Origin: Cereibacter sphaeroides 2.4.1
GTDB lineage: Bacteria > Pseudomonadota > Alphaproteobacteria > Rhodobacterales > Rhodobacteraceae
Assembly (NCBI RefSeq): GCF_000012905.2
Contig: NC_007493.2
Coordinates: 1,860,001 to 1,892,000 of the forward strand
Reading direction: 5' to 3'
Length of the DNA: 32,000 nucleotides
Position 1 is the stretch's first letter. Each line of letters starts with the position of its first letter. Positions 9,207 through 30,175 of the stretch are shown piece by piece. A program made the position numbers and the translations under genes. Below the pieces are notes generated by a model. That model saw only the letters and a program-made list of their open reading frames with translations, was not told the origin of the DNA and did no database searches.

Positions 9207-10234
9207 TTGCTTTCCTCCTCGAATGTCAGCGCCTGCGGCCCGAGCGGCGCCAGCAGGGACGCCACCTCCTCCGGCCGCACCGCCTCCGGGTCTCCGTGCC
9301 GCCAGCGGGGGCTGCGGTCCTTGTCGATGATCGCCGCGCGGATCCCTTCGAGGAAGTCCGCCTGCCCCTGCGCGCGGTAGGTGAAACGATATTCCAGATC
9401 GAGCGCCTCGCGGATGCCGGCCGAGGGTCCGAGCCGCTGCAGGATCTCCAGCGTGGCGGCCAGCGCAAGCGGCGAGCTGCGCCGCAGGGCCTTCAGCGCC
9501 TCGGCGGCGAGCGGGGTGTCCGTGGCCTCGAGCCGGGCCGGAATCTCCGCGAGCGTGCCCGCGAAGAGCCGGTCGATCTCGTCCTGAAGCACGGGCAGGC
9601 GTCCCTCGGGCGCCGCATGATCGGGAAGGGCGAGATCCCCGCCCTCGAGTGCCGCGATCAGATCGGGCCAGTCCGCTTCGGGCACGAACCGGTCGGCGAA
9701 GCCTGCGAAGATCGCATCGCCCGGCCCCATCCGCGCGCCCGTCAGGCCGAGCCAGACCCCGATCCGGCCCGGCGCGCGCGCCAGAAGATGCGTGCCCCCC
9801 ACGTCCGGCACGAGGCCGATGGCGCATTCCGGCATGGAGATCTGGCTCGTCTCGCCCACGATCCGGTGGCGCGCGTGACAGCCGAGACCCACGCCGCCCC
9901 CCATGGTGAAGCCCTGCATGAGGCTCACGATCGGCTTCGGAAAGGCCGCGATCCGGTCGTTCATGCGATACTCGACGCGCCAGAAGTCCTGCCCGAAGGC
10001 ATGATCGCCCGCCACGCCCCGGCCGTGGAGCTCGGCGATGTCGCCGCCGGCACAGAAGGCGCGCGGCCCCTCGGCATCGATGACCACGAGCTCGACCTCG
10101 GGATCGCCGATCCAGCCCCGCAGGGCCGCGTCGATCTCCTGCACCATCGCGCAGGTGAGCGCATTGAGCGCCGCAGGCCGGCTCAGCGTGATGCGGCCCG
10201 CGCGGCGGACCTTGCGGATCAGCACGTCGCTCAT
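9203..10234 (-). CDS. Enoyl-CoA hydratase/isomerase-family 3-hydroxyisobutyryl-CoA hydrolase
   Basis: 343 aa. Crotonase-fold motifs ITLSRPAALNAL, FCAGGDI, MGGGVGL. The extended C-terminal region is typical of HIBYL-CoA hydrolases. It sits between an acyl-CoA dehydrogenase and mmsB, with 4-nt overlaps on both sides. Confidence 0.85.
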   Translation of the reverse strand: MSDVLIRKVRRAGRITLSRPAALNALTCAMVQEIDAALRGWIGDPEVELVVIDAEGPRAFCAGGDIAELHGRGVAGDHAFGQDFWRVEYRMNDRIAAFPKPIVSLMQGFTMGGGVGLGCHARHRIVGETSQISMPECAIGLVPDVGGTHLLARAPGRIGVWLGLTGARMGPGDAIFAGFADRFVPEADWPDLIAALEGGDLALPDHAAPEGRLPVLQDEIDRLFAGTLAEIPARLEATDTPLAAEALKALRRSSPLALAATLEILQRLGPSAGIREALDLEYRFTYRAQGQADFLEGIRAAIIDKDRSPRWRHGDPEAVRPEEVASLLAPLGPQALTFEEESK

Positions 10235-12907: not shown

Positions 12908-14791
12908 TTACCCCTGCCCCCCGAAGAGGGGGCCGCTGTTCCAGTCCGGCGCGAAGCGGAACCGCACCTGCGGCACCGTTCCGCTGCCCGCGCCCGACAC
13001 GACATATTCCGCCCGCGTGATCCGCAGCGGCTCGAGCCCGAAGGCCAGCGCCGCGAGGCTTTCCGTCCCCCGGCTGAGCCCGCCCGCGATCACCAGCGCA
13101 AAGAGCGCAGCCACCGCCGTGCCCTGCAGCGCCAGATCCCCCAGCTGATCGCGCCAGAAGGCGCCGATCTGCCGCAGATGGTGCCAGACCATCACGAGGA
13201 CGAGGCTGCCGTAGAGGATGGCGTTCAGCAGCGTGAGCAAGAGGAAGCCCCGCGCCTCGGCCAGCTCGTCGGCCAGAAACACCGGCAGCACGCAGCCCGC
13301 CGCCAGCGCCACATAGATCGCGATGATCTTGGGCGGGATGCGGCGGCTTGCCGCCGAACCCTTGGGCGTGATGCGGAAATCGACGAAGCGCCCGGTCACG
13401 CGGTCGCGCACCGCCATGGCGCAGCCCCAGAGCACCCACGGCCATTGCAGCGCCAGAAACAGCGCCTTCTCCCACGAGAAGACCGGCGCATCCACAGGCC
13501 GGCAGAAGCCGTCGTGCCGCAGAAGCCAGGCGAAGGCGGTGAGGGCCGTCACGGCAGGCAGCGCATGGAAGACGAAGCCCGGATAGGTGACATCGGCGAA
13601 GCGCATGTCGAAGAGCAGCGCCAGCGCCGGCGCCAGATACATCATCAGCATGACCAGCGCGAAGAGCGGATACCAGAGCTGGCAGACGATGAAGAGGAAC
13701 TTCAGCCGCCCCGGCAGCCGGCCCAGATAGCGCGGCGTGTGCGACAGGAGCAGCGTGAGCAGGCTCCGCGACCACTGGAATTCCTGCGTGGCAAGGTCGG
13801 CCACATTGGCGGGCCCGTCGCCATAGGCGATGGCGTCGATCGCATGGACGCCGCGCCAGCCGCCCGCGGCCAGCAGCATCGAGGTCGAATGGTCCTCGGC
13901 AAGCTCCGGCCCGAGGCCGCCCACCTCGCGGAGCGCCCGCGTCCGCACCGCATAATGCGAGCCGATGCACATGGGCGTCAGCGCCCCGGCATAGCCGGTC
14001 TGGAAGGCGCCGTGGAAGGCCGCCTCGGTGTGGAGCCGCGTGCGGGCAGCCCAGCTCTCGGAGGCATTGGCCGCGCAGATGCTGGGGGCGCTGACATAGC
14101 CCACCTTCGGATCGGCGAAGGGGCGCAGGATCTCGCGCAGATAGCCCGGCTGGGGCATGTGATCCGCGTCGAGCTGCGAGACGATGTCATAGTCCCGGTA
14201 GCCCCAGTGGTCGTAGAAGAAGGCGAGGTTGCCCTCCTTGCAGCGCGTGCGCCGCGGCCAGACCGGCCGGTGATAGTCCGCACGGCCCTTCCGGCACGAG
14301 ATCTTCACCCCGTGCGCCGCGCACCAGGCGGCGGTCTCGGGCGAGGGATCCTCGTCGGCAAGCCAGGTGTCGTGGGGATAATCCTGCGCCAGCATCGCCT
14401 CGAGCGTGCGGCGGACCACCTCGAACGGCTCCGAGGGGGTCTTTGTCACGATCATGGCCACGCGCCAGCGTCCGGGCACCGGGTCGGGCGCGGCGGAGCG
14501 GTGCGACTGGAACAGGATCACGACGAAATAGAGCTGCAGCGCGCTCAGCCACAAAAGCGGGATGGTGACGAGGAGGAACCCGCCCCAGCCGATGAAATGG
14601 GCGGGATCGAGCCACCAGGACCAGAAGAAGACGAGGCCCGCCGCCCAGAGGACCGTCACCGCCGCGTAGCGCGCCCGTTGCCGTCCGTTCATCAGCGGAG
14701 TGCGGAAGGGTGCGGCGGTCGCAGCGACCCTCAGGCGGGCCTGCCGTTTCAGCCGGGCGCGGGCGCGCCGCGCATCATGCCGCTTCGACAT
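12908..14791 (-). CDS. Processive family-2 glycosyltransferase, cellulose-synthase-like polysaccharide synthase (ApsS-like)
   Basis: 627 aa. N-terminal TMs, a GT2 core with LADEDP, QLDADH (DxD), AEDHSTS (TED-like) and QEFQWSRS (QxxRW), then multiple C-terminal TMs. I see no PilZ RxxxR / DxSxxG motif. GGAG lies 7 nt before the ATG at 14791, and the start overlaps the epimerase 3' end by 17 nt. Confidence 0.85.
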   Translation of the reverse strand: MSKRHDARRARARLKRQARLRVAATAAPFRTPLMNGRQRARYAAVTVLWAAGLVFFWSWWLDPAHFIGWGGFLLVTIPLLWLSALQLYFVVILFQSHRSAAPDPVPGRWRVAMIVTKTPSEPFEVVRRTLEAMLAQDYPHDTWLADEDPSPETAAWCAAHGVKISCRKGRADYHRPVWPRRTRCKEGNLAFFYDHWGYRDYDIVSQLDADHMPQPGYLREILRPFADPKVGYVSAPSICAANASESWAARTRLHTEAAFHGAFQTGYAGALTPMCIGSHYAVRTRALREVGGLGPELAEDHSTSMLLAAGGWRGVHAIDAIAYGDGPANVADLATQEFQWSRSLLTLLLSHTPRYLGRLPGRLKFLFIVCQLWYPLFALVMLMMYLAPALALLFDMRFADVTYPGFVFHALPAVTALTAFAWLLRHDGFCRPVDAPVFSWEKALFLALQWPWVLWGCAMAVRDRVTGRFVDFRITPKGSAASRRIPPKIIAIYVALAAGCVLPVFLADELAEARGFLLLTLLNAILYGSLVLVMVWHHLRQIGAFWRDQLGDLALQGTAVAALFALVIAGGLSRGTESLAALAFGLEPLRITRAEYVVSGAGSGTVPQVRFRFAPDWNSGPLFGGQG

Positions 14792-15767
14792 GGGCGGGCT
14801 CCAGTCCGAACCAGGGCGCGGCGTGGCGCACGATGGATCCGATATCCGACAATTGCGTGCGGAAGCCGAGTTCGGACGCCGCCAGCGCGGGGTCGGCCAC
14901 CAACTCTGCCGGGTCGCCCGGGCGCCGCGCCTCGAGCCGGACCGGCACCGCGCGCCCTGTGATCCGCTCGATCGCGGCCACGATCTCGCGCACCGACTGG
15001 CCGCGGCCCGTGCCGAGGTTCACCGCAAGGCTCTCGCCGCCCGCCATCAGCCGGCCGAGTGCCAGCACATGGGCGCGGGCCAGATCCGCCACATGGATAT
15101 AGTCGCGGATGCAGGTGCCGTCGGGCGTCGGATAATCGGTGCCGAAGATCGAGAGCGGCCCGCCCTGCCCCGAGGCCGCGCGCAGCGCGAGCGGCAGGAG
15201 GTGCGTCTCGGGATCGTGCCGTTCGCCGAGCTCGCCTTCCGGGTCGGCGCCGGCCGCATTGAAGTAGCGCAGCGCCACATGGCGCATCCCCTCGACGCCG
15301 AGATCGCGCAGGATCTCTTCGCCGATGAGCTTGGTGCGGCCATAGGGATTGATCGGCCGCTGCGGCGTCGTCTCGCGGATCGGCAGCCGGTCGGGCGTCC
15401 CGTAGGTCGCGCAGCTCGAGGAGAAGACGATGCGCGAGACGCCCGCGGCGCGGCAGCCCTGCACGAGGCCGATCATGCCGCCCACATTGTTGTCGTAATA
15501 TTTCGCCGGGTCCGCCATGGACTCGCCCACATAGGCCGAGGCCGCGAAATGGATCACCGCCTTCGCACCATGGGCGCGCAGCGCGGCCTCGACCGCATTC
15601 GGATCGCGCACGTCGCCCTGCACCAGCGGGCCGAAGCGCACGGCATCGGCGTGGCCCGTCGAGAGATTGTCGAAGCTCACCGGGCGATGGCCCGCGCGCG
15701 CCAGCGCCTTGCAGGTGTGCGAGCCGATGAAGCCCGCCCCACCCGTCACCAGAATCGTGTCAGGCAT
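14775..15767 (-). CDS. galE: NAD-dependent UDP-sugar 4-epimerase (GalE family; may act as a UDP-xylose 4-epimerase, Uxe, given its neighbour)
   Basis: 330 aa. VTGGAGFIGSH, SSSCATYG, YGRTK (S-Y-K triad). The start overlaps the uxs stop (ATGCCTGA, 15760-15767). Confidence 0.88.
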   Translation of the reverse strand: MPDTILVTGGAGFIGSHTCKALARAGHRPVSFDNLSTGHADAVRFGPLVQGDVRDPNAVEAALRAHGAKAVIHFAASAYVGESMADPAKYYDNNVGGMIGLVQGCRAAGVSRIVFSSSCATYGTPDRLPIRETTPQRPINPYGRTKLIGEEILRDLGVEGMRHVALRYFNAAGADPEGELGERHDPETHLLPLALRAASGQGGPLSIFGTDYPTPDGTCIRDYIHVADLARAHVLALGRLMAGGESLAVNLGTGRGQSVREIVAAIERITGRAVPVRLEARRPGDPAELVADPALAASELGFRTQLSDIGSIVRHAAPWFGLEPAHVEAA

Positions 15768-16797
15768 GGACCAGCAGAGCCTCGCGCGCCCGGACGACCT
15801 GAGGTTCGCCCGCGAAATGCCGGATGGTCCGGGCGATGCCTTCGGCCAGCGGCACCGTCGGCGCCCAGCCGAGGAGCCGCGCCGCCTGCGCGATGTCGGG
15901 CCGGCGCTGGCGCGGATCGTCGACCGGCAGCGGCCGATGGACCAGCCGCGAGGAAGAGCCGGTCTGAGTCAGCACCATCTCGGCCAGCTCGCGCATGGTG
16001 AACTCGCCCGGATTGCCGAGGTTGACCGGCTCGCTCACCTCCGACGCCATCAGCGCCATCAGTCCGGCCACCAGATCGTCCACATAGCAGAAGGAGCGCG
16101 TCTGCATCCCGTCGCCATAGAGGGTGATGTCGCTGCGGGTCAGCGCCTGGACGATGAAGTTCGACACGACCCGGCCGTCCTCGGGGCTCATCCGCGGCCC
16201 GTAGGTGTTGAAGATCCGCGCGATCCGCACCTCGAGGCCCTGATGGGCGCCGAACTCCCAGAACAGGGTCTCGGCCGCGCGTTTGCCCTCGTCGTAGCAG
16301 GCCCGCGGGCCCACCGTATTGACGCAGCCGCGGTAGCCCTCGTGCTGGGGCGAGATCTCGGGATCGCCATAGACCTCGGAGGTCGAGGCCTGGAGGATGC
16401 GCGCGCCCGTGGCCCGCGCCAGCGCGAGCAGGTTCAGCACGCCCTCGGTGCAGGTGCGGAACGTATGGATCGGATCGCGCTGGTAGAGCGGCGGAGAGGC
16501 CGCGCAGGCAAGGTTGTAGATCTCGTCCAGCGGCCCCTGCCAGTCGATCCGGTTCAGGATGTCCTGCTCGAGAAAGCGGAATTGGGGATGATCGAGCAGC
16601 CCAGCGACATTCTCTTTGCGGCCGGTCAGAAGATTATCGAGACAGACGACGGAATGGCCCTCGGCAATCAGCCGCTCGCAAAGATGAGAGCCAACAAAAC
16701 CGGCTCCTCCCGTGACGAGAATGACCTTCCGGCGATGGAAACGAGGCATAAAAGAATCATGACCGGTCACATCGACCGGAATAAGGCTTCCGTCCAT
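15760..16797 (-). CDS. uxs: UDP-glucuronate decarboxylase (UDP-xylose synthase)
   Basis: 345 aa. VTGGAGFVGSHLCERL, QASTSEVYGDP, YDEGKR, RIFNTYGPRM, DGMQTRSFCYVDDLV all match the UXS family closely. GGAG lies 8 nt before ATG 16797. An alternative Met is at 16749. Confidence 0.9.
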   Translation of the reverse strand: MDGSLIPVDVTGHDSFMPRFHRRKVILVTGGAGFVGSHLCERLIAEGHSVVCLDNLLTGRKENVAGLLDHPQFRFLEQDILNRIDWQGPLDEIYNLACAASPPLYQRDPIHTFRTCTEGVLNLLALARATGARILQASTSEVYGDPEISPQHEGYRGCVNTVGPRACYDEGKRAAETLFWEFGAHQGLEVRIARIFNTYGPRMSPEDGRVVSNFIVQALTRSDITLYGDGMQTRSFCYVDDLVAGLMALMASEVSEPVNLGNPGEFTMRELAEMVLTQTGSSSRLVHRPLPVDDPRQRRPDIAQAARLLGWAPTVPLAEGIARTIRHFAGEPQVVRAREALLVHA

Positions 16798-16950
16798 TTA
16801 CGAAACTCCGATCGGGCACGCCCGGCGAAATAACCGGTCGTGATGCCACCGTGGCATCTGCTTCACTGATTGAAGCCCTGGCGATGCTGTTCTTGTGTCG
16901 GGGTGCAGCTTCTTTCGGGGCGGCGTCTACTTACTTTCGAATTTGAACCC

Positions 16951-16980
16951 ATTCTTAAGAATGTGCCGATTTCCTGTCAA
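16951..16980 (-). promoter_or_regulatory. Candidate sigma70-type promoter of the uxs operon, with a 12-bp palindrome over the -10
   Basis: Minus strand reads TTGACA (16980-16975), an 18-nt spacer, then AAGAAT (16956-16951). The perfect palindrome ATTCTTAAGAAT (16951-16962) covers the -10. It lies about 150 nt upstream of the uxs ATG inside the AT-rich island. This is a sequence match only. Confidence 0.3.
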
Positions 16981-20963: not shown

Positions 20964-21218
20964 TCAGCCCATCCCGAGGGCGGATTTGTAGAGTTCGAGG
21001 ATCGTCTCTTCCTCGGCGATGTCGTCGGGCTTGCGCTTGCGCAGGGCCACGACCTTCTTCATCACCTTCGTGTCGTAGCCGCGGCCCTTGGCTTCCGCCA
21101 TCAGCTCTTTCTGCTGCTCGGTCACGTCCTTCTTCTCGGCCTCGAGCTGCTCGTAGCGCTCGATGAACTGGCGCAGCTCGTCGGCGGTGACGTTGTAGGA
21201 ATCCAGCGGGTCGCTCAT
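20964..21218 (-). CDS. gapR: DUF2312/UPF0335 nucleoid-associated protein (GapR family)
   Basis: 84 aa. LRQFIERYEQLEAEKKDVTEQQKELMAEAKGRGYDTKVMKKVVALRKRK...ILELYKSALG aligns by eye with Caulobacter GapR (..EAKGNGFDVKVLKKVV..ILDLYLSAIG). Confidence 0.85.
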   Translation of the reverse strand: MSDPLDSYNVTADELRQFIERYEQLEAEKKDVTEQQKELMAEAKGRGYDTKVMKKVVALRKRKPDDIAEEETILELYKSALGMG

Positions 21219-21354
21219 GTCTCTGCCTCTCGGTCTCGTTGGCGCCCCTCCTATCGCGGGCCGGGGGGCCGGATCAAGCGGCTGAAGGCGGAGAGCGCCC
21301 TTGCCAGGGCCGCGCAGGCGGGCTAGGCCGCGCGCAGGTCAGCGGGAGACGCGC

Positions 21355-21570
21355 ATGGAATGGATGATCTGGATCGGAGCCCTGATCTCGCTCGCCGGTG
21401 TGGGCGGGCTTGTCTGGTGCATCTGGCTTGCGCTTCAGGCGCGGCGGTCCGGGCTCGACGACGCGGCGATGCGCGAGCGCCTGCAGCGGGTTGTCGTGCT
21501 GAACGTGGCGGCGCTCGGCGTGTCCGCACTCGGGCTCATGTGCGTAGTGATGGGCATCCTGCTCGGCTGA
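21355..21570 (+). CDS. Small hypothetical membrane protein (2 TM, 71 aa)
   Basis: Internal Met MEWMIWIGALISLAGVGGLVW with GGGAGA 5 nt upstream. Second TM VAALGVSALGLMCVVMGILLG. The tracked N-terminal extension is Arg/Pro-rich. Confidence 0.5.
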   Translation: MEWMIWIGALISLAGVGGLVWCIWLALQARRSGLDDAAMRERLQRVVVLNVAALGVSALGLMCVVMGILLG

Positions 21571-21782
21571 GCGCTTTCGCGCGAGCCGCAGGCCCCCTTT
21601 TCGGCGCGGTTGTCCGTCAGGACCGCAAGCCGGCAAGGACGGTGAAGCGTCAGCATGTCTCCGAGCGGGGACGGGGCACAGGTTTCGGTCGATCACCCCG
21701 GGTTCGTCACCCGGAGCGGCGGTGCCTGACATGACGGTCTTTTCGGGAGATCGACTCCTGGTGCGGGAGAACCCCCGCCGCG

Positions 21783-21959
21783 TCACACCGGCATGTTGTC
21801 GAAATCTGCCTCGATCTCGGCATCGGTCCGGTCAACCGCGGGTATCACCAGAGCAAGTCCCTGCATTTCGGCAAGAAGATGGGCGAGGCTCTCCAGCGGA
21901 GCGGCCTCTTCCTGTTGCGGCAGGCTGCGGACAGCTTCGGGTTTCGGTTCGAACGACAT
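21783..21959 (-). CDS. Acidic 58-aa hypothetical miniprotein, operonic with the DksA/TraR gene
   Basis: ATG 21959 is preceded by GGAGGAGGA and lies 17 nt after the DksA-like stop. Sequence MSFEPKPEAVRSLPQQEEAAPLESLAHLLAEMQGLALVIPAVDRTDAEIEADFDNMPV. The rest of the tracked 172-aa ORF is an out-of-frame shadow of the DksA-like gene. Confidence 0.5.
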   Translation of the reverse strand: MSFEPKPEAVRSLPQQEEAAPLESLAHLLAEMQGLALVIPAVDRTDAEIEADFDNMPV

Positions 21960-21976
21960 GGATCCTCCTCCGCCGG

Positions 21977-22294
21977 TTACCCGGCGCATTTGCGGCAGAA
22001 GGGCGTGTAGGGCAGCACATCGAGCCGCGCTTCGCCGATTTCGGCCCCGCATTTGACGCAGAAGCCATATTCGTCCGCGTCGATCCGGGCGAGCGCCGCC
22101 GTGATCGCGCGGATTTCCTGCTGACCCGAGGTGCCCATGCTTTCCAGCACCTCCTCGGTCTCGCGTTCGGTGGCAAGCTCTTCCCAGTCGCGCGAATTGT
22201 GCGAGTCGAGCTCTGCCTCGATGCCTTCGAGACGGGCCCCGAGATCGGCCAGCCGCGCCTCGAGCTGGGCCTTGCGACGGGGAATGTCGATCAT
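21977..22294 (-). CDS. DksA/TraR-family C4 zinc-finger protein
   Basis: 105 aa from MIDIPRRK (GAGGAGG upstream). A coiled-coil region, then CVKCGAEIGEARLDVLPYTPFCRKC (CxxC-N17-CxxC). The coiled-coil tip reads RDWEELA, which is DxxExA and not the DksA DxxDxA. Confidence 0.85.
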   Translation of the reverse strand: MIDIPRRKAQLEARLADLGARLEGIEAELDSHNSRDWEELATERETEEVLESMGTSGQQEIRAITAALARIDADEYGFCVKCGAEIGEARLDVLPYTPFCRKCAG

Positions 22295-22619
22295 GGGCCA
22301 CCTCCTCTGATTGCCGGAGGTTAGGCGAAGGCCCACAGCCCCTCCTTGATGCAGGTCAATGATTTAAGCCCTTCGCCGAGGGCGCCGTCCCCGACGTCAC
22401 GCAGTACGGCGGAGAGGTTGCGAGCGACGGCGCAGGGGAAGGAACGGGCGACGGCGCCGCAGAATGGAGGTGCGGGCGGAGGCCTCGCCTCCACCGGGAT
22501 GGCGCCGCACCGCCGGCTGTGCACCGGCCGCCGGAGCGTGAACCGGCGCCCTGCGGCCTTTCCTCCTGCGGCGGGGGGCGATATGGTCGCCCGCAGCCGC
22601 GCTGCAGCACGAGGACCCC

Positions 22620-23051
22620 ATGAGCTTCCGCCCCCTGACCGACCGCTACGCCGTCTCGCCCCAGATCTCGCAGGAGGAGCTTCCGGCGCTCCGCGCGGCA
22701 GGCTTCACCACGATCATCGACAACCGGCCGGATGGCGAGATCCCGCCCCATCTCCAGACCGAGGAGATGCGCCGGGCGGCGGAGGCCGAGGGCTTCACCT
22801 TCATCGCGAACCCGGTGATCGGCGGCGCCGTCACGCTCGAGAATGTCGAGCGCCAGCGCGAGGCCATCGATCAGGCCGGCGGCCCGGTGCTGGCCTACTG
22901 CGCCTCGGGCAACCGCTCTTCGGTGGTCTGGGCGCTGGCGAATGCCGGCCGGATGCCGACGGACGAGCTGATCGGCCTGCCTGCCCGGCACGGCTACCAG
23001 CTCGAAGGGCTGCGCCACGAGATCGACCGCCTCGCGCGGGAGCGCGGCTGA
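22620..23051 (+). CDS. DUF442/TIGR01244-type phosphatase-like (sulfur-transferase-associated) protein
   Basis: 143 aa. ISPQIS..., IIDNRPDGE, and the P-loop-like YCASGNRS are typical of the beta-lactamase-hydrolase-like N-terminal/DUF442 fold. GAGGA lies 4 nt before the ATG. Confidence 0.75.
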   Translation: MSFRPLTDRYAVSPQISQEELPALRAAGFTTIIDNRPDGEIPPHLQTEEMRRAAEAEGFTFIANPVIGGAVTLENVERQREAIDQAGGPVLAYCASGNRSSVVWALANAGRMPTDELIGLPARHGYQLEGLRHEIDRLARERG

Positions 23052-23309
23052 CAGGCAGGTTACGGGTGCGGCGCCGCGAGGCGCTGCGCGGCTTCTGAGC
23101 CGCGCATCCTTCTGCCGCCCACGACCTGTGCCAAGGCTCCGCTTTCGGCTCGATCCGCCCGGCAAGGCGGGACGGGGCGCGTTCCTCTGCCGGACGGGAC
23201 GTCGAAACGGGGCGCAATGGCCGGGCGCCGCGCATCGGGGGCCGTCGTGGCCCGGGGCAGAAGGCTTCGGGGAGCGGCGCATGGCTGCGTGCGCCAGACG
23301 GTGTTCGGC

Positions 23310-24341
23310 TCACTCGTCAGTCCCCGTCATGGCGAAAGACAGGTCTTCATCCTCGGGCTCGAACTCCGGCAGAGCGGGGGGCGGATCGGCCGCCGCCATG
23401 GGCGCCAGACGCACGGCGCGCATCCCGCGATGCTGGCCGAGCCGCCCCTCGGCGACCGGATGGCCGTCGAGCCCCACGAAGAGGATATGGTCGAGCGTGG
23501 CCTGCGGCAGCGGCACCGTATCGCCCGGCTGCCAGTCGAGGACCTGGGCGAGCGGCAGGGTGATGCGGCCGAGAACCGCCTCGAGCCGGCAGTCCACCGC
23601 CATCACCTGCTCGGCCAGAGCCGCGCCGAAGTCGGTCAGCGGCGGCGGAGCCTCGTCCTGGCTGCCGTCGTGCGGCCGCTCTCCGCGGCCGTCGGCCGGG
23701 ACGGCGAGGAGAAGCTGCCCGCTCTTGGCGCCGAGGGCCAGCTCCACCTCGGCCACCAGCACACGGTAGGAACAATCCTCGAGCAGGAGGCCAAGCGGCC
23801 GGGGATCGTCGAGGAAGGAGGCGTAGCGGAAGCCGCTGGCCCAGACCCGATCCTCATCCTCGAGCAGAAGGAGGTCGAGCTCGGCCAGCGCGCGGTCGAT
23901 GAAATCCTGTACCATGGCCGCGTCGGTGCGGCTGGGCTTGCGGGTGGCGGCGGGCTGCGGCCTGACCCGGCCCACGGTCTGCACCTCGACCAGCCCGGCA
24001 AGCAGCGGCGGCGCGAGGGCGATCAGTCCCAGCCCCTCGCCCGGCCCTTCGAGCACCGCATGGAACGACAGATCCTCGGGCATCTCGAGGAGTTCGGTGA
24101 GGGAGCGGCGCAGACAGTCGAGCCGCGGCACGTCGAGGGCGAGCGCGAAGGCATCGCGCCCGGCCCGCGCCAGCGCCAGCCGCAGGCCGCGCTCGGCGCC
24201 GGTGACCTGCGGCACCGCCGGCCGGGCCTTCGCCTCGATCTTGCGCCTGAGCACGCTCTCCGTCACCGTCGCTTCCCACATGCCGCTGCCCTGCCCTTCT
24301 GACATGGCAGGATTGAGAAACGGTTGATGGCGGAGGGCCAT
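23310..24341 (-). CDS. FliM-family flagellar-switch-like protein (FliM middle domain + C-terminal SpoA/FliN-like domain)
   Basis: 343 aa. LGLIALAPPLLAGLVEVQTVGRV and SRTDAAMVQDFIDRALAELD resemble the FliM middle domain. The C-terminus LEAVLGRITLPLAQVLDWQPGDTVPLP...VGLDGHPVAEGRLGQHRGMRAVRL is SpoA-like. The start is ambiguous (24341, 24305 or 24281), and only 24281 has an AGGG-type SD. No other flagellar gene is in the window. Confidence 0.75.
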   Translation of the reverse strand: MALRHQPFLNPAMSEGQGSGMWEATVTESVLRRKIEAKARPAVPQVTGAERGLRLALARAGRDAFALALDVPRLDCLRRSLTELLEMPEDLSFHAVLEGPGEGLGLIALAPPLLAGLVEVQTVGRVRPQPAATRKPSRTDAAMVQDFIDRALAELDLLLLEDEDRVWASGFRYASFLDDPRPLGLLLEDCSYRVLVAEVELALGAKSGQLLLAVPADGRGERPHDGSQDEAPPPLTDFGAALAEQVMAVDCRLEAVLGRITLPLAQVLDWQPGDTVPLPQATLDHILFVGLDGHPVAEGRLGQHRGMRAVRLAPMAAADPPPALPEFEPEDEDLSFAMTGTDE

Positions 24342-24405
24342 GTCGCCCGGGCCGGACCTGCCAGCATCCTGGGTCGGGGGGCGCCGCAGGCGGTGGTGGC
24401 CGCGC

Positions 24406-27090
24406 TCAGGCGGCGCGCTGGAGCCGCAGAGGCAGGGTCACGCGGAAGGCAGCGCCCCCCTGTCCCGGCAGGTAGGTGATGGTGCCGCCGAGGTTGGCCA
24501 TCACCTCGCGGCAGATCGCGAGGCCGAGGCCCGCCCCGCCGGCCCGGGTCTGGTCCGAAAGCCGGGCGAACTTCTCGAAGATCAGCTCCTGGCTCTCCTT
24601 CGAGATCCCGGAACCGTTGTCGATGAAATCGACCGTCACGCGCCCGCCCTTCTGGCGCACCGAGATCCGCAGTTCGGGATAGTCCGCGTCGCAGTATTTG
24701 CGCGCGTTCGAGATCAGATTGATGAAGACCTGCGCCAGCCGGTCGCCGTCGGTGAACAGGAAGATGTTCTCGGCCGCCGGATCGCGATGGATGGTGAAGC
24801 CGCGCTCGGGGCGGGTTTGGGCCGCCGAGCTCAGGGCGCGGTCGATCATCTGCTGGAGATTGGCGAGCCCGAGGTCGAGCTGCACCGATCCGTTCTCGAG
24901 CACGGAGAGGTCGAGCAGGTCGTCGAGCAGCCGGGTGAGCCGGATGGCCTCGTCATGGATGATGCGGGCGTGGCGCGCGGCCATCTCGGGCGGCAGATCG
25001 CCGTCCATCAGGATCTCGGAGAAGGCGCGGATCGAGGTCATGGGGGTGCGCAGCTCGTGGCTGATCTGGCTGAGGAAGGCGTCCTTCTGCACCGACAGCT
25101 GCGTGAGCTTCTCGTTGGCCTCGCGCAGCTGGCGCGCGGTGCGGGTCAGCTCGTCCTGCTGGGCCTCGAGCCGCGCGGAATATTCCATGATCTGTGCGGT
25201 CTCGTTCGCCACCGCCATCAGATCCTCGACCGAGACCGCGGCGCGCCCGGCCAGCTGGGCCAGCATCGCGTGGGCCGTGGCCGCGCCGACCGAGCCCGCA
25301 AGCCGCCGCTCGAGCCGCTCGACGAAGCCGGGGACCGGATCGGGCAGATAGCCCTCCTTTCCCTGCGCGCGCGCCTCGGACTGGAAGAGCGCCAGCGCCG
25401 GCTCCTCGCCGAGGATGCGCTGCGCCATCACCAGCAGCTCCTCGGATTCCGCCTTGCCCTGCGCCCATCCCTGCGGGCCGCGGTTGCCGGTCTCGAACAC
25501 ATTGACGAAGGCCGCGCCCTGCAACCGCTCGAGCGGGCCCGGGAAGGTCACGAGCGAGGCGCCGCAGAAGACGGTGCCGTTCAGGATGAGCGACCAGAAC
25601 AACGAATGGATCAGCGGATCCATCCCCTCGACCCCGAACAGCGCCTGCGGACGGAGCCAGCCGATCCCGAACGGTCCCTCGGCGAGAAGGCGGGCCGAGA
25701 AGATCGCATCCGGGCCGAAGGAGGGCAGGAACAGCGTATAGACCCAGACCGCGAAACCGAGGCTGAGGCCCCAGAGCGTGCCCGTCCGGGTGGCGCCGCG
25801 CCAGAAGATGCCGCCCAACATCGCAGGCAGGATCTGCGCCACGCCCACGAAGGAGATGAGGCCGATCGCGGCCAGCGCGCTCGAGCCGCCCGAGAAGCGG
25901 TAATAGCCGTAGCCCAGCGCCAGAACGCCCGCGATGGAGATCCGCCGGGAGAGCAGCACGAGGCGGCGCACGTCGCCGCTGACGGCCGGCATCGGGCGCA
26001 GCGACAGCCAAAGCGGCATGACGATATGGTTCGACACCATCGTGGCCAGCGCCACCGCGGCCACGATCACCATCGCCGTGGCCGAGGAGAAGCCGCCGAG
26101 GAAGGCCAGCATGGCCAGCCCACCCTGCCCGCGGTCGAGCGGCACGGTCAGGACGAACAGGTCCGGATTGGCGCCCTCGGGCAGAAGCTCGAGGCCCACG
26201 ACCGCGATCGGCACCACGAAGAGGCTCATCAGGAACATGTAGAGCGGGAAGGCCCAGCTCGCCGTGGCGAGGTGGCGCTCGTCCCCGTTCTCGACCACCA
26301 GCACCTGGAACATCCGCGGCAGGCAGACCACCGCTGCGGCCGACAGGAAGGTGAGGCCCGCCCAGCGCGAGGGCGCGAGTTCCCAGTCGGCGATGGCCGA
26401 GCGGTCGATACGGGCGATCACGTCGGCGGGCCCGTCGGCCACCCCCCAGACGACGTAACTGCCCACCGCCACCAGCGCCACCAGCTTCACGATTCCCTCG
26501 ACGGCAATGGCGGTGACGATGCCCGTATGCTGCTCGTTGGCATCGAGCTTCCGCGTGCCGAAGAGGATGGTGAAGAGCGCAAGCCCCCCCGCGACCCAGA
26601 TCGCGGTGCTGTCACGGTCGGGCATCTGCCAGCCCTCGTGCGAGCCGCTGGCGAAGACGCTGAAGCTCAGCGTGACGGACTGGAGCTGGAGCGCGATATA
26701 GGGTGTGGCGGCCACCACGCAGAGCAGCGTGACGAGCACGCCGAGCAGGTTCGATTTGCCGTAGCGCGAGGAGATCAGGTCGGCGATCGAGGTCACGCGC
26801 TGCTGCCGCCCGATCCGCACCAGCTTGCGCAGCACCCACCACCAGCCGACGAAGACGAGCGTCGGCCCGAGATAGATCGTGAGATATTCGAGCCCCGAGC
26901 GCGCCGCATATCCCACCGCGCCGTAGAAGGTCCAGGCGGTGCAGTAGATCGAGAGCGAGAGCGTATAGACGAGCGGCGACCGCAGCCAGGGCAGCGCCTC
27001 GCCCACCGCCCGGCGCTCGACGAGGAAGGCCACGAGGAAGAGCAGGATGACGTAGCAGAGGCAGGAGAGAACGAGGAGATCGAACGGCAT
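24406..27090 (-). CDS. Sensor histidine kinase fused to an N-terminal sodium:solute-symporter (SSF)-type polytopic domain
   Basis: 894 aa from MPFDLLVLSCLCY. The tracked 119-aa N-extension is Arg/Gly/Pro-rich and overlaps the upstream gene. About 500 aa of SSF-like TMs (SIYCTAWTFYGAVG, SIADLISSRYGKS...), a linker, then H-box FLSQISHELRTPMTSIRAF, N-box LISNARKY, G1 DNGSGI, G2 GAGLGLAI. No receiver domain. The start overlaps the upstream stop (TGATG, 27088-27092). Confidence 0.88.
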   Translation of the reverse strand: MPFDLLVLSCLCYVILLFLVAFLVERRAVGEALPWLRSPLVYTLSLSIYCTAWTFYGAVGYAARSGLEYLTIYLGPTLVFVGWWWVLRKLVRIGRQQRVTSIADLISSRYGKSNLLGVLVTLLCVVAATPYIALQLQSVTLSFSVFASGSHEGWQMPDRDSTAIWVAGGLALFTILFGTRKLDANEQHTGIVTAIAVEGIVKLVALVAVGSYVVWGVADGPADVIARIDRSAIADWELAPSRWAGLTFLSAAAVVCLPRMFQVLVVENGDERHLATASWAFPLYMFLMSLFVVPIAVVGLELLPEGANPDLFVLTVPLDRGQGGLAMLAFLGGFSSATAMVIVAAVALATMVSNHIVMPLWLSLRPMPAVSGDVRRLVLLSRRISIAGVLALGYGYYRFSGGSSALAAIGLISFVGVAQILPAMLGGIFWRGATRTGTLWGLSLGFAVWVYTLFLPSFGPDAIFSARLLAEGPFGIGWLRPQALFGVEGMDPLIHSLFWSLILNGTVFCGASLVTFPGPLERLQGAAFVNVFETGNRGPQGWAQGKAESEELLVMAQRILGEEPALALFQSEARAQGKEGYLPDPVPGFVERLERRLAGSVGAATAHAMLAQLAGRAAVSVEDLMAVANETAQIMEYSARLEAQQDELTRTARQLREANEKLTQLSVQKDAFLSQISHELRTPMTSIRAFSEILMDGDLPPEMAARHARIIHDEAIRLTRLLDDLLDLSVLENGSVQLDLGLANLQQMIDRALSSAAQTRPERGFTIHRDPAAENIFLFTDGDRLAQVFINLISNARKYCDADYPELRISVRQKGGRVTVDFIDNGSGISKESQELIFEKFARLSDQTRAGGAGLGLAICREVMANLGGTITYLPGQGGAAFRVTLPLRLQRAA

Positions 27091-27380
27091 CAGCCCGCCC
27101 CGCCCTCCGGCGGATCGCCCGCCTCGGCCCCATCCTCCAGCGCCTCGGCCTTGAGGCCCCGGGACATGCCGGCGGCCACGAGGATCAGGACCGCCCAGAC
27201 CGCGAAGAGATAGACCCCGTCGGGGGCGGTGTCGCGCTGGTCCGTCGCGGCCGGCTCCCACAGGATCGGCAAAAGGAAGAGGAACGCGCCGAAGACCGGC
27301 AGGAGCCGGGCCGCATCGCGGAGCCGCCGCCTCCGGTAGGATCGCCGCGCGAGAAAGAGCGGCGAGCGACGCCGGCTCAT
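27090..27380 (-). CDS. Small 2-TM membrane protein (96 aa), translationally coupled to both the receiver gene and the kinase gene
   Basis: MSRRRSPLFLARRSYRRRRL... with TMs LLPVFGAFLFLLPILW and VYLFAVWAVLILVAAGM, and an acidic tail EALEDGAEAGDPPEGGAG. ATGA overlap with the receiver stop (27377-27380) and TGATG overlap with the kinase start. No family recognised. Confidence 0.6.
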   Translation of the reverse strand: MSRRRSPLFLARRSYRRRRLRDAARLLPVFGAFLFLLPILWEPAATDQRDTAPDGVYLFAVWAVLILVAAGMSRGLKAEALEDGAEAGDPPEGGAG

Positions 27381-27745
27381 CGCGGCACCAGCGCCCGGAC
27401 CGAGGCCAGCATCTCGGCATTCGAGAAGGGCTTCGACATGAAGGCATCCACGCCGGCCTTCTTGGCCGCCGCGCGGTCGCGCACCTGCCCCTTGGCGCTC
27501 AGCATCAGCACCGGCAGATCCTCGGTCTGGGGATCGGCACGGAGCGCCGAGAGGATGTCGAAGCCGCTCATGCCGGGCAGCATCACATCGAGGATCAGAA
27601 GGTCCGGCTGTGCCGTGCGCACCACCTCGATCGCATCCGCTCCGCCCGCATGGGTCGAGACCTTCAGCCCATCGCGCATGAGGATGAAGCGGATCGCCTC
27701 GGCGATGTTCGGCTCGTCCTCGATCAGCAGCACATGCGCCGTCAT
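27377..27745 (-). CDS. Single-domain CheY-like response regulator (no output domain)
   Basis: 122 aa from MTAHVLLIEDEP (GGGGGGA upstream). DLLILDVMLPGMSG (phospho-Asp context), LMLSAKG, FMSKPF. The tracked start at 27823 falls inside the predicted -35 box. Confidence 0.88.
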   Translation of the reverse strand: MTAHVLLIEDEPNIAEAIRFILMRDGLKVSTHAGGADAIEVVRTAQPDLLILDVMLPGMSGFDILSALRADPQTEDLPVLMLSAKGQVRDRAAAKKAGVDAFMSKPFSNAEMLASVRALVPR

Positions 27746-27794
27746 GAACCATCCCCCCCGAAACCTGCACCGGGGCCTCCCCGCCCCGTCGGCA

Positions 27795-27823
27795 ACTATC
27801 AGCCGAAAATCCGGTGCTGTCAA
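27795..27823 (-). promoter_or_regulatory. Sigma70-like promoter of the receiver/miniprotein/kinase operon
   Basis: Minus strand reads TTGACA (27823-27818), a 17-nt spacer, then GATAGT (27800-27795). This predicts a 5' UTR of about 40-45 nt before ATG 27745. Confidence 0.45.
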
Positions 27824-27906
27824 AGCGCGAGGAGGGGCAGAAGGCGCCCGTCCGGGGGCGGAGCGGCCTCTCCGAAGGGATAAACACCCCCGGGGGCGCC
27901 GGGGCG

Positions 27907-29193
27907 TCAGGAGCCCTCGAGCAGGATCGAAGGCTCGCGCCGGGCGGGGCAGCCTGCCCGCGGGCAGATCCGGCAGGAGGTGCCGACCGCGCGCGGCACG
28001 AGCGCCGGATCGGGCACGGCGGGCTCGATCAGCATCCCCGCCTCGCGCAGTTCCGGTCCCGCGAAGCCCTGCGGATGGTGCGGCTCGCAGAAGGCGCGGG
28101 CGCGGAAGCGGCGACGGGTGCGGGCGGCGGGCTCGACCACCGCCTCGACGGGGCGCATCGGGTGGGCCAGCGCCTCGAAGAGCGGCCAGAGCGGACAGGC
28201 CGCCCCGAAGCGCGGCAGCAGGAACCCCTCGGGCGGCTTGCGGAAGACGAGGGTGCCCGAGCCGTCGCAGATCACGAGGCCCGCGATGGCGCCGGGCAGC
28301 GTGGCGATCCGCCGGAAGGCCGCGAGCACCCCCACGCCGAAGCGCCGCGCGACCAGCACCGGATCGCCCTCGGCGCGGAGCGCGGCGCGGAACGGATCGA
28401 GCGGCATGGCCCGCGCATCCGCCTCGGCCCGCAGCACCCAGTCGCGCGCCATCGCCCGTCCGGCGGCCGAGGCCAGCCCCTCGATCTCGGCCTCGAGCCG
28501 CGCCCGCCCGCCCGGCTCCTCCAGCTCGGCCAGATGCCAGTCGCGCGCGGCAAGCCAGCCTTCCACCTCCTCCTGCGGGGCCACGACCCCCTGCTCCTCG
28601 TCTTCCGAGGCGGCATCGAGATAGGCCACCAGCGCCTCGGCGCCCACGGCCAGCCGCTCGCTGTCGGCATGGATGTTGGCGTGAAAGCGCGCGCGCCAGT
28701 CGGGCTCGATGTCCTCGGTCTCGGCGAGGATCGCCGCGGTGGAGCGCACGGCGCTCACCGCCGAGAGAACTTCGTGCAGCGCCTGGCTCAGGTGGGTGTC
28801 ATGGGTCAGCCGGTCGTTGAGCGCGTTGACAGTCCGCTCGAGCAGCCCCATCCGGCGGTGCTGCGCAGCCAGCATCCGCGCCCAGCCCGGAAAGCGGCCC
28901 ACGAAATCCTCGACCCGGTCGAGCTCGGGCTGATCGTCGCCCGCCGAGGCGGCGGCGGCGCGCAGATCCTCGACCAGCACGCCCTCGGCCCCGGCCAAGA
29001 GCGTCTGCGCCTCGACCTTCAGGGCCCGGGCGAGCCGCGCCAGAACCTCGTCGCCGATCCGGCGACGGTTGTGCTCGATCAGGTTGAGATAGGAGGCCGA
29101 GATCCCCGCCGCCCGCGCCAGATCGGCCTGCCTCAGCCCGAGCTGCAAGCGCCGTTCGCGCACCCGGCTGCCCGTCAGCGCCGTCATCGGCAT
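27907..29193 (-). CDS. XRE-family HTH transcriptional regulator with a long C-terminal DUF2083-like (ScfR/PrpR/RamB-type) domain
   Basis: 428 aa. The N-terminus LTGSRVRERRLQLGLRQADLARAAGISASYLNLIEHNRR is a classic HTH_3. The C-terminus is Cys-rich (ACPLWP, FCEPHH, TSCRICPRAGCP). GGAGGAG lies 6 nt before the ATG. Confidence 0.8.
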   Translation of the reverse strand: MPMTALTGSRVRERRLQLGLRQADLARAAGISASYLNLIEHNRRRIGDEVLARLARALKVEAQTLLAGAEGVLVEDLRAAAASAGDDQPELDRVEDFVGRFPGWARMLAAQHRRMGLLERTVNALNDRLTHDTHLSQALHEVLSAVSAVRSTAAILAETEDIEPDWRARFHANIHADSERLAVGAEALVAYLDAASEDEEQGVVAPQEEVEGWLAARDWHLAELEEPGGRARLEAEIEGLASAAGRAMARDWVLRAEADARAMPLDPFRAALRAEGDPVLVARRFGVGVLAAFRRIATLPGAIAGLVICDGSGTLVFRKPPEGFLLPRFGAACPLWPLFEALAHPMRPVEAVVEPAARTRRRFRARAFCEPHHPQGFAGPELREAGMLIEPAVPDPALVPRAVGTSCRICPRAGCPARREPSILLEGS

Positions 29194-29214
29194 GGTCCGC
29201 TCCTCCGCAGTTTA

Positions 29215-29227
29215 CAGGATCATCCTG
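29215..29227. promoter_or_regulatory. 13-bp palindrome CAGGATCATCCTG just upstream of the XRE regulator gene
   Basis: Perfect 6-bp arms around a central C, 22 nt upstream of ATG 29193. It is a candidate autoregulatory operator. Confidence 0.3.
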
Positions 29228-29297
29228 CAAGTTCCGGGGGAAGGACAGCGCTTTTCAGCGGGTCCGCGCCCACCGGTCAAGCGAAGGGCGCGAGAGA

Positions 29298-29321
29298 GGA
29301 CCGGGCCGAAAGGCCCGGCCC
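29298..29321 (-). terminator. Stem-loop after the FAH-family gene
   Basis: CCGGGCC-GAAA-GGCCCGG (7 bp, plus 2 further pairs after one mismatch), starting 9 nt after the stop at 29330. The minus-strand tail TCTCTCGCG is only weakly U-rich. Confidence 0.35.
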
Positions 29322-29329
29322 CGAGCCTG

Positions 29330-30175
29330 TCAGGCGTCGGCCACGACCTCCTGGCGCTGCTGGCCCAGCCCCTCGACGCCGAGTTCGACCACATCGCCCG
29401 GCTTCAGGAAGCGCGGCGGCTTCATGCCGAGCCCCACGCCCGGAGGCGTGCCGGTCGAGATCACATCGCCCGGATGGAGCGTCATGAACTGCGACAGGTA
29501 GCTGACCAGATAGGCCACGCCATAGACCATCGTTCCGGTCGTGCCGTTCTGCATCTTCTCGCCGTTGACCGACAGCCACAGCGGCAGGTTCTGCGGGTCC
29601 GCCACCTCGTCGCGCGTCACGAGCCAGGGGCCGAGCTGGCCGAAGTTGTCGCAGCTCTTGCCCTTCGTCCACTGGCCCGACCGCTCGGACTGGAAGGCCC
29701 GCTCGGAGACGTCGTTGGCCACCGCATAGCCCGCCACATGGTCGAGCGCCTCGGCCTCGGAGACATATTTCGCCTTCTTGCCGATGATGATGGCCAGTTC
29801 CACCTCCCAGTCGGTCTTGACCGAGCCGCGGGGGATGATGATCGGGTCGTTCGGGCCGCAGATCGCAGAGTTGGCCTTCATGAAGATGATCGGCTCGGGC
29901 GGGACCTGCGCGCCGGTCTCGGCGGCGTGGTCCGAATAGTTCAGGCCGATGCAGACGAATTTGGTCGTGCCCGCGACGCAGGGCCCGAGCCGCGTGCCCT
30001 CGGCCACGACCGGCAGGCTCGCCCCGTCGATGTCGCGGAGCCTGGCCAGCCCCTCGTCCGTCAGCACTTCGCCCGCGATGTCCGGCACCACGCCCGACAG
30101 GTCGCGGAGGGTGCCGTCGGTCCAGACGAGGCCCGGTCGTTCGGCCCCGGCGGGCCCATGGCGCAGCAGTTTCAT
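29330..30175 (-). CDS. Fumarylacetoacetate-hydrolase (FAH) family hydrolase, 2,4-diketo-3-deoxy-L-fuconate hydrolase-like
   Basis: 281 aa. KFVCIGLNYSDHA, DWEVELAIIIGKK, GDVISTGTPPGVG are typical FAHD1/YcgM-type motifs. It is paired with a BDH2-type SDR, as in non-phosphorylative deoxy-sugar pathways. Confidence 0.85.
   Translation of the reverse strand: MKLLRHGPAGAERPGLVWTDGTLRDLSGVVPDIAGEVLTDEGLARLRDIDGASLPVVAEGTRLGPCVAGTTKFVCIGLNYSDHAAETGAQVPPEPIIFMKANSAICGPNDPIIIPRGSVKTDWEVELAIIIGKKAKYVSEAEALDHVAGYAVANDVSERAFQSERSGQWTKGKSCDNFGQLGPWLVTRDEVADPQNLPLWLSVNGEKMQNGTTGTMVYGVAYLVSYLSQFMTLHPGDVISTGTPPGVGLGMKPPRFLKPGDVVELGVEGLGQQRQEVVADA

Follow-up and report, generated by a model that had tools for sequence, protein, structure and literature searches.

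The DNA analysed here (the window) is a stretch of 32,000 nucleotides (nt) from Cereibacter sphaeroides 2.4.1 (contig NC_007493.2, positions 1,860,001 to 1,892,000 of the forward strand). It carries four consecutive open reading frames (ORFs), all on the minus strand, which encode a stand-alone receiver, or single-domain response regulator, of 122 amino acids (aa) (27377..27745), a 96-aa membrane miniprotein with two predicted transmembrane (TM) helices (27090..27380), an 894-aa transporter-fused sensor histidine kinase (24406..27090), and the flagellar protein FliM (23310..24266). A first-pass annotation of this DNA had read the string as a single transcription unit and signaling module, in which the kinase, assisted by the miniprotein, phosphorylates a CheY-like receiver that then acts on the adjacent FliM-like protein. 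As a description of the locus it was largely accurate: the ORF list and Pfam domains agree on the four minus-strand genes, and the overlaps, promoter, and domains stand as described, while the FliM start and the length of the spacer between the kinase gene and fliM had to be revised. Its interpretation is retained for the kinase-receiver operon and the miniprotein and given up for the receiver-FliM step and the single transcription unit. An upstream XRE/ScfR regulator gene, which the first-pass annotation had passed over, belongs evolutionarily with the receiver, miniprotein, and kinase genes.

These three genes are one translationally coupled operon behind one promoter. The start of the miniprotein gene shares 4 nt with the receiver stop (ATGA), and at the other end 1 nt is common to the miniprotein stop and the kinase ATG (TGATG), both overlaps being read directly from the sequence. 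The sigma-70-like promoter TTGACA-17-GATAGT (27795..27823, minus strand; 10/12 matches) drives the operon and is the sole sigma-70-like match within 22300-29400 (7.1 kb), where shuffled sequences yielded an expectation of 0.2. A terminator-like GC hairpin with a T-rich tail (27888..27904, minus strand; CCCCGGCGCCCCCGGGG then GTGTTTATCC) lies just past the stop codon of the XRE gene and stands between that gene and the promoter at 27823-27795. An Rfam search of the window returned no RNA family, and the neighborhood is 95 to 100% identical at the protein level to that of Cereibacter johrii JA192.

The kinase (minus strand) comprises an SLC5 domain (~aa 1 to 515), a probable four-helix STAC bundle (~aa 549 to 614), a long coiled coil, and the DHp (H678) and CA domains. 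Residues 6 to 460 match PDB chain 10ed_A, a 606-residue "histidine kinase" chain, with a phmmer E value of 5e-69; its name and its length make it most likely that this chain is the CbrA SLC5-STAC construct described in PMC13022988. The Pfam SSF match is weak and limited to aa 48 to 138, and the transporter region displays 11 clear hydropathy peaks, where the LeuT-fold SLC5 domain of this family has about 13 TM helices. On the strength of the 10ed_A match, the kinase belongs to the SLC5/STAC "transceptor" kinases, together with CbrA, CrbS, RpuS, and PrlS (PMC9100948). Kinases of this family control the use of acetate, pyruvate, and histidine (PMC9100948, PMC5715377), and the sensor domain studied here is 40% identical to Sinorhizobium megaplasmid genes. 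The Pfam scan identified HisKA (5e-17) and HATPase_c (7e-25) and no receiver domain, in agreement with the first-pass description of a symporter-type domain of ~500 aa followed by HisKA/HATPase; no PAS domain was matched by Pfam at E values up to 10. H678 is invariant across 20 kinase homologues. The AlphaFold model of the full-length protein has a mean pLDDT of 47.7 and displays one continuous helix (aa 621 to 695) running into DHp, and its Foldseek matches, which cover the catalytic core only, indicate a resemblance to HK853. Within this poor model, aa 549 to 614 form four helices with a local pLDDT of 76 to 82. Searches of aa 461 to 670 in Pfam and PDB found nothing meaningful, and, given the quality of the model and the lack of any sequence model recognizing this region, a STAC bundle at aa 549 to 614 is plausible but unproven.

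The miniprotein (minus strand), whose gene overlaps both neighbors, has hydrophobic segments at ~aa 24 to 42 and 52 to 76 in the hydropathy profile and matches no Pfam family above threshold. It is conserved in most loci by tblastn, with 41% identity in Paracoccus and 33% in Neorhizobium. By gene arrangement, as distinct from any compared sequence, it may be regarded as CbrX-like. CbrX, a hairpin of 58 aa, is encoded by an ORF that overlaps cbrA, with translational coupling between the two; in the cryo-electron microscopy structure, CbrX is bound to TM3/TM8 of the CbrA SLC5 domain (PMC6591292, PMC13022988). The earlier suggestion that the miniprotein assists the transporter domain has a direct precedent in CbrX (PMC6591292, PMC13022988).

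The receiver (minus strand) consists of a Response_reg domain (Pfam, 6e-28) and no other. Its translation includes the E9/D10 acidic pocket, the phospho-acceptor D53, S83, F102, and K105, so that it looks phosphorylatable. Its best NCBIfam and PDB matches are the receivers of PhoB, MtrA, CreB, PleD, and YycF (E values of 1e-31 to 1e-20); the CheY chains among the matches listed have E values of 4e-18 to 1.6e-13, weaker than those of PhoB/OmpR/PleD (~1e-22). The sequence is thus nearer to PhoB/OmpR/PleD receivers than to the CheY chains listed. Since the genes share one translationally coupled operon and one promoter, phosphotransfer from the kinase to this receiver, as the first-pass annotation had proposed, would be the natural reading. 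A receiver without an output domain must act by protein-protein contact. The cognate regulators of SLC5/STAC kinases carry an NtrC- or LuxR-type DNA-binding output, which this protein does not. An output-less stand-alone regulator likewise occurs in the Paracoccus, Neorhizobium, and Cupriavidus relatives, and stand-alone receivers seem to be recurrent partners of this SLC5 kinase subfamily. Identity with Osp, the single-domain regulator of CckA, was rejected: the gene context is different, and Osp has neither the acidic pocket nor the lysine.

The XRE-family regulator (27907..29193, minus strand; 428 aa) has an XRE helix-turn-helix at its N terminus (HTH_3, 1e-12) and, at its C terminus, the domain of the short-chain fatty acyl-CoA regulators (ScfRs, 2e-9). 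A Peptidase_M78 middle domain was found in the Neorhizobium orthologue only. Both its size and its domains argue against this gene being XrpA, a 120-aa XRE protein that represses ctrA, and that identity was rejected.

Comparative analysis of the fliM loci separated these four genes from fliM. The Rhodobacter-clade scan used one genome per species and the best 80 of 286 fliM loci, of which 79 were assessable; many loci came from metagenome-assembled genomes, Roseobacteraceae lay outside the sample, and absence of the cassette was judged at the fliM locus only. In 66 of these 79, the kinase gene stands directly upstream of fliM and is read in the same direction, in the shared order dihydropyrimidinase, ATP-binding cassette (ABC) transporter, XRE, receiver, miniprotein, kinase, fliM. 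Where a cassette-bearing locus was assessable and extended far enough upstream, an XRE orthologue precedes the receiver gene, as it does in Paracoccus and Neorhizobium. The remaining 13 species-level loci display an ABC-transporter substrate-binding protein gene followed directly by fliM, with the XRE, receiver, miniprotein, and kinase genes jointly missing. In the FliM tree, the 13 group together as a single clade inside a set of cassette-bearing lineages, which indicates a single loss of the cassette followed by speciation with fliM retained. Past fliM, the order in the Rhodobacter clade continues with a BLH-phosphatase gene on the opposite strand, a DksA-like gene, GapR, and an ABC permease; in the window, the BLH-phosphatase-like, DksA/TraR-type zinc-finger, and GapR-like genes occupy 20964-23051, and their order is kept in the Rhodobacter clade, not in Paracoccus.

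Paracoccus provides a second set of comparisons. The order in Paracoccus ferrooxidans is histidine kinase/response regulator-transcription factor, XRE, receiver, miniprotein, kinase, fliM, infA, maf, rng, yacG, and that in P. cavernae is histidine kinase/response regulator-transcription factor, fliM, infA, maf, rng, yacG, with no cassette in between. In P. suum, fliM likewise lies beside infA with no cassette at the locus. P. yeei (locus L087, 4705-10095) has kept XRE, miniprotein, kinase, and fliM; the XRE stop is 3 nt from the miniprotein start, and a tblastn search of this 19-kb locus found no receiver gene. Outside this family, Neorhizobium SOG26 encodes XRE(ScfR), receiver, miniprotein, and kinase (50 to 53% identity) followed by a convergent glycogen-debranching gene, with no fliM near the cassette locus. 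Paralogous miniprotein-kinase-receiver modules are found in other contexts in P. denitrificans and Cupriavidus; the module on plasmid 1 of P. denitrificans PD1222 (locus L083, 4263-11163) is flanked by DUF294-type nucleotidyltransferase and exonuclease-domain genes. A FliM search of the plasmid collection returned matches from Paracoccus and Pseudorhodobacter only.

The XRE-receiver-miniprotein-kinase cassette is thus the unit of inheritance, gained and lost as a block with the XRE gene disappearing together with the rest, and fliM is outside it. That the unit is this four-gene cassette and not a five-gene string with fliM follows from the synteny in the Rhodobacter clade, Paracoccus, and Neorhizobium. 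The gene order that the first-pass annotation had put forward for comparison holds in part: it is conserved into Paracoccus, but the cassette is absent upstream of fliM in the 13 genomes, P. cavernae, and P. suum, and Neorhizobium has the cassette without fliM nearby.

The fourth gene, called FliM-like in the first-pass annotation, encodes a protein whose predicted fold is that of a complete FliM, with a CheC-like middle domain and a C-terminal FliN-like domain. In addition to a Pfam FliMN_C match (4e-15), its AlphaFold model aligns by Foldseek to Salmonella FliM chains over ~290 columns (E value of 1e-11), reaches a TM-score of ~0.7 against FliM middle domains, and has a core (~aa 50 to 220) with pLDDT above 80. 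The curated FliM model TIGR01397 gives 41 bits against a cut-off of 219.6 and covers the C-terminal 70 residues only; this low score is that of a divergent alphaproteobacterial FliM lineage. Homologues are annotated as FliM/FliN throughout Cereibacter, Rhodobacter, Tabrizicola, Cypionkella, Pseudorhodobacter, Gemmobacter, and Paracoccus, and C. sphaeroides assemblies carry a 70% identical FliM in the same gene neighborhood. The gene probably corresponds to the experimentally studied RSP6099, reportedly identified by del Campo et al. 2007. In a review from the group working on the archetypal (Fla2) flagellum, its fliM is placed "elsewhere in chromosome I" and not in the fla2 cluster, and CtrA is said to activate it with the other fla2 genes (PMC7277832). 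The gene studied here is most likely the fliM of this flagellum. FliM is 65 to 70% identical in the same genome pairs in which the kinase and receiver are 92 to 94% identical (window 23310-24266 versus loci L002 and L003), and it appears from these comparisons to evolve much faster than its neighbors within Cereibacter/Rhodobacter.

The start of fliM was moved from 24341, the first-pass choice, to a GTG at 24266, giving a protein of 318 aa (23310..24266, minus strand). The N terminus of FliM homologues is "(M)TESVLRRKIEAK." GTG 24266 coincides with the start annotated for the closest named orthologue ("MTESVLRRK"), and this codon is preceded by GGGAAG. Further, a conserved noncoding motif at 24327-24312 falls within the first 13 codons of the earlier N-terminal extension, which is for that reason regarded as not coding. 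Translation thus probably starts at GTG 24266. With this start, the distance between the kinase gene and fliM, previously given as 64 to 124 nt, is 139 nt, and it carries a promoter-like element. The classical CheY-docking motif of FliM is of the LSQxEIDxLL type, and no such peptide was found when the FliM N terminus was examined; the family N terminus is (V/I)(I/L)RRK(I/V/L)xA. The first-pass annotation had entered the missing docking peptide as a caveat to its own model, and this caveat holds. The (V/I)(I/L)RRK motif is kept in the cassette-less clade.

The promoter-like element is a CtrA-box-like direct repeat of 16 nt (TCAACCGTTTCTCAAT; 24312..24327, minus strand), with the family consensus T(T/C)AAC(G/C)CTTTG-N-(T/C)AA(C/G). 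It was found by cross-species alignment of the kinase-fliM spacers of Cereibacter species, which are variable except for one conserved block, TCAACCNTTTCTCAA. The motif, which also lies inside the ORF extension used by some gene callers, is matched at 11/16 positions or more in 65 of 84 loci, whether the cassette is present or not, compared with 3.8% of random 220-nt windows, and at 13 to 15 of 16 positions in all 13 verified cassette-less loci. Related motifs precede fliM in 4/4 Paracoccus loci, ~60 to 95 nt before the annotated start, and across the family the motif stands at a nearly fixed distance from the fliM coding region. Its structure is a (T/C)TAAC direct repeat, TTAAC-N6-(T/C)TAAC-like, with the halves one helical turn apart, as in the CtrA box, TTAA-N7-TTAA(C); in the window the repeat is degenerate (TCAA-N7-TCAA), and a search for TTAA-N7-TTAA with one mismatch found no site near fliM. 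We consider the motif a candidate CtrA-type promoter of fliM. At fla2 promoters, the CtrA site ends 23 to 24 nt before the transcription start site, with an A at -11 and 12 to 33 nt to the start codon (PMC6180460). The spacing here fits that arrangement. By analogy, transcription would begin near 24289, A24300 would occupy -11, and GTG 24266 would be the start codon. Binding of the XRE regulator to the motif was rejected on two grounds: the repeat is direct, and genomes without the XRE gene still have it.

Two further observations concern this spacer and motif. In C. johrii JA192 (locus L001, ~9724-10000), ~212 extra nt lie between the kinase stop and the fliM motif, so that this spacer is 276 nt compared with 64 nt in the window (24342-24405), between flanking genes that are 95 to 98% identical. 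The only window match to TTAA-N7-TTAA with one mismatch is TGAACCCATTCTTAA (16944-16958, plus strand), which is intergenic, in DNA of lower GC content. Two NAD-dependent sugar epimerase/dehydratase genes arranged in tandem (minus strand; 15760-16797 and 14775-15767) have this site ~150 nt upstream of them.

Collectively, we find it fairly probable that the locus consists of two separate functional units that happen to adjoin, a nutrient-sensing cassette and a CtrA-controlled fliM. The first unit would comprise the ScfR-type XRE regulator gene with its own terminator, and then the sigma-70-type promoter driving the receiver, miniprotein, and kinase genes. A small solute would bind to or pass through the SLC5 domain, against which the miniprotein would be packed; by analogy to the acetate, pyruvate, and histidine family, and given the co-inherited ScfR-type regulator, the solute would probably be an organic or short-chain carboxylic acid. 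The STAC bundle and then the coiled coil would pass the change on to DHp, where H678 would autophosphorylate and pass its phosphoryl group to D53 of the receiver. The receiver would then act by protein contact, with the ScfR-type regulator, or a metabolic or kinase partner, as a likelier target than FliM. The second unit would be the genuine fliM of the ancestral CtrA-controlled flagellum, transcribed mainly from the CtrA-box-like promoter in the 139-nt spacer. The link of the cassette to FliM is most likely positional.

Several points weigh against this interpretation. Where the cassette is present in Paracoccaceae, it is always immediately upstream of fliM (in the 66 of 79 loci and in several Paracoccus species), and, of all the gene junctions around fliM, Paracoccus and the Rhodobacter clade share this one alone. 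The kinase-fliM gaps are short, mostly 10 to 150 nt, and, as the first-pass annotation had stated, a scan of the spacer recognized no terminator-like site. The ligand and the target of the receiver are conjectural, the STAC bundle comes from a low-confidence model, and CtrA binding is deduced from the resemblance of the motif. The conserved adjacency counts as weak evidence, because survival of a five-gene block at such divergence is not unusual.

One alternative is transcriptional coupling without any protein-level link, in which transcripts reading through from the cassette promoter would make part of fliM expression nutrient dependent, in addition to what its own promoter provides. Such coupling is what the 139-nt spacer without a terminator-like structure, the short spacers of most genomes, and the same-strand arrangement of every cassette-bearing locus would suggest. 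We nevertheless regard it as unlikely, since a conserved and independent promoter-like motif lies directly upstream of fliM, C. johrii tolerates the ~212 additional nt in its spacer, and fliM works without the cassette in many genomes; the stoichiometry of FliM in the C-ring would also make a solute-driven dosage an odd control point. The same conserved motif and the separate inheritance of the cassette speak against the single transcription unit that the first-pass annotation had extended to fliM.

The receiver might instead modulate CckA/ChpT/CtrA or another kinase, as Osp and FixT do, and thereby affect the whole Fla2 regulon. Inhibition of a kinase by a single-domain receiver has been documented in this organism group (Osp, PMC9430884), and the cassette adjoins a gene of the CtrA regulon. 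Moreover, the title of Vega-Baray et al. 2015, as cited in PMC9430884, reports that organic acids repress Fla2, and SLC5/STAC kinases sense such compounds (PMC9100948). However, direct evidence for such a target is lacking, Osp is a different, non-phosphorylatable protein encoded elsewhere, and the cassette also occurs in a nonflagellar context in Neorhizobium, so that we give this possibility little credence. A broader version, which we likewise consider quite improbable, would make the transceptor and its receiver a nutrient input to the ancestral Fla2 system, acting either through FliM or at the CckA-ChpT-CtrA level. If true, it would explain the lasting attachment of the cassette to fliM in Paracoccaceae and would supply a mechanism by which organic acids repress Fla2, as has been reported.

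The original proposal, that the transporter-fused kinase phosphorylates the receiver and the receiver binds the adjacent FliM, coupling nutrient transport to the flagellar switch without CheA, is in our judgment very improbable. It can draw on the same-strand adjacency across Paracoccaceae, including Paracoccus species in which both outer flanks are different, on the spacer without a terminator, on the intact phospho-acceptor pocket of the receiver, and on a kinase-single-domain receiver-FliM route that exists in Xanthomonas (PMC7036368). Co-inheritance, receiver family, docking peptide, retention of the N-terminal motif, and promoter architecture are all contrary to it: fliM keeps its N-terminal and promoter motifs after loss of the cassette (the 13 genomes, P. 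cavernae, and P. suum), Neorhizobium has the cassette without fliM, P. yeei has lost the receiver alone, the receiver is not CheY-like in sequence, and FliM has no classical CheY-docking peptide. In addition, Fla2 rotation is reportedly controlled by CheY1, CheY2, and CheY5 (del Campo et al. 2007).

If the interpretation of two adjoining units is true, the finding is modest and adds an uncharacterized architecture to the small family of SLC5/STAC transceptor kinases. The kinase lacks a PAS domain and goes with a receiver that stands alone, a partner resembling CbrX, and an ScfR-type regulator inherited along with it. This architecture is widespread in Paracoccaceae and also present in Neorhizobium, the one Rhizobiaceae genome examined, and could offer a tractable system for how SLC5/STAC kinases signal without a DNA-binding regulator. 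The analysis also yields a corrected fliM gene model for the archetypal Rhodobacterales flagellum together with a candidate CtrA-type promoter. A CheA-independent route from nutrient transport to the switch is unsupported by co-inheritance and has a published precedent in another group.

That precedent is the HpaS-VemR-FliM pathway of Xanthomonas campestris, in which the non-CheA kinase HpaS phosphorylates the single-domain receiver VemR, which binds FliM (PMC7036368). Its concept equals the model of the first-pass annotation, whose claim of novelty is thereby weakened, a CheA-independent kinase-receiver-FliM route being already known (PMC7036368). HpaS is not fused to a transporter, however, and for the genes studied here the co-inheritance test of receiver and FliM fails. 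For fliM itself, the closest comparison is the FliM of the C. sphaeroides Fla2 flagellum (archetypal, "fla1-type"), with which it shares a gene location outside the flagellar cluster (PMC7277832) and a full FliM fold; no difference was established.

The closest known system to the cassette is CbrX-CbrA/CbrB of Pseudomonas. Assuming that 10ed_A is the CbrA construct, both kinases have homologous SLC5 domains fused to DHp/CA, a probable four-helix STAC bundle would follow the last TM helix here as in CbrA, and in both systems the kinase start is overlapped by a small ORF for a two-helix membrane protein, with translational coupling; CbrX has 58 aa and the miniprotein 96. CbrA, CrbS, and RpuS carry a PAS domain between STAC and DHp, which the kinase studied here does not; CbrB is a sigma-54 activator encoded downstream, whereas the partner here is a 122-aa output-less receiver encoded upstream in the same operon; and an ScfR-type XRE regulator is co-inherited with the genes studied here. 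CrbS/CrbR and RpuS/RpuR, which respond to acetate and pyruvate and include representatives in Sinorhizobium fredii, are alphaproteobacterial SLC5-fused carbon-source kinases as well (PMC9100948). CrbS and RpuS are hybrid kinases with a PAS domain, a C-terminal receiver, and LuxR-type DNA-binding partners, in contrast to the nonhybrid kinase and stand-alone receiver of C. sphaeroides.

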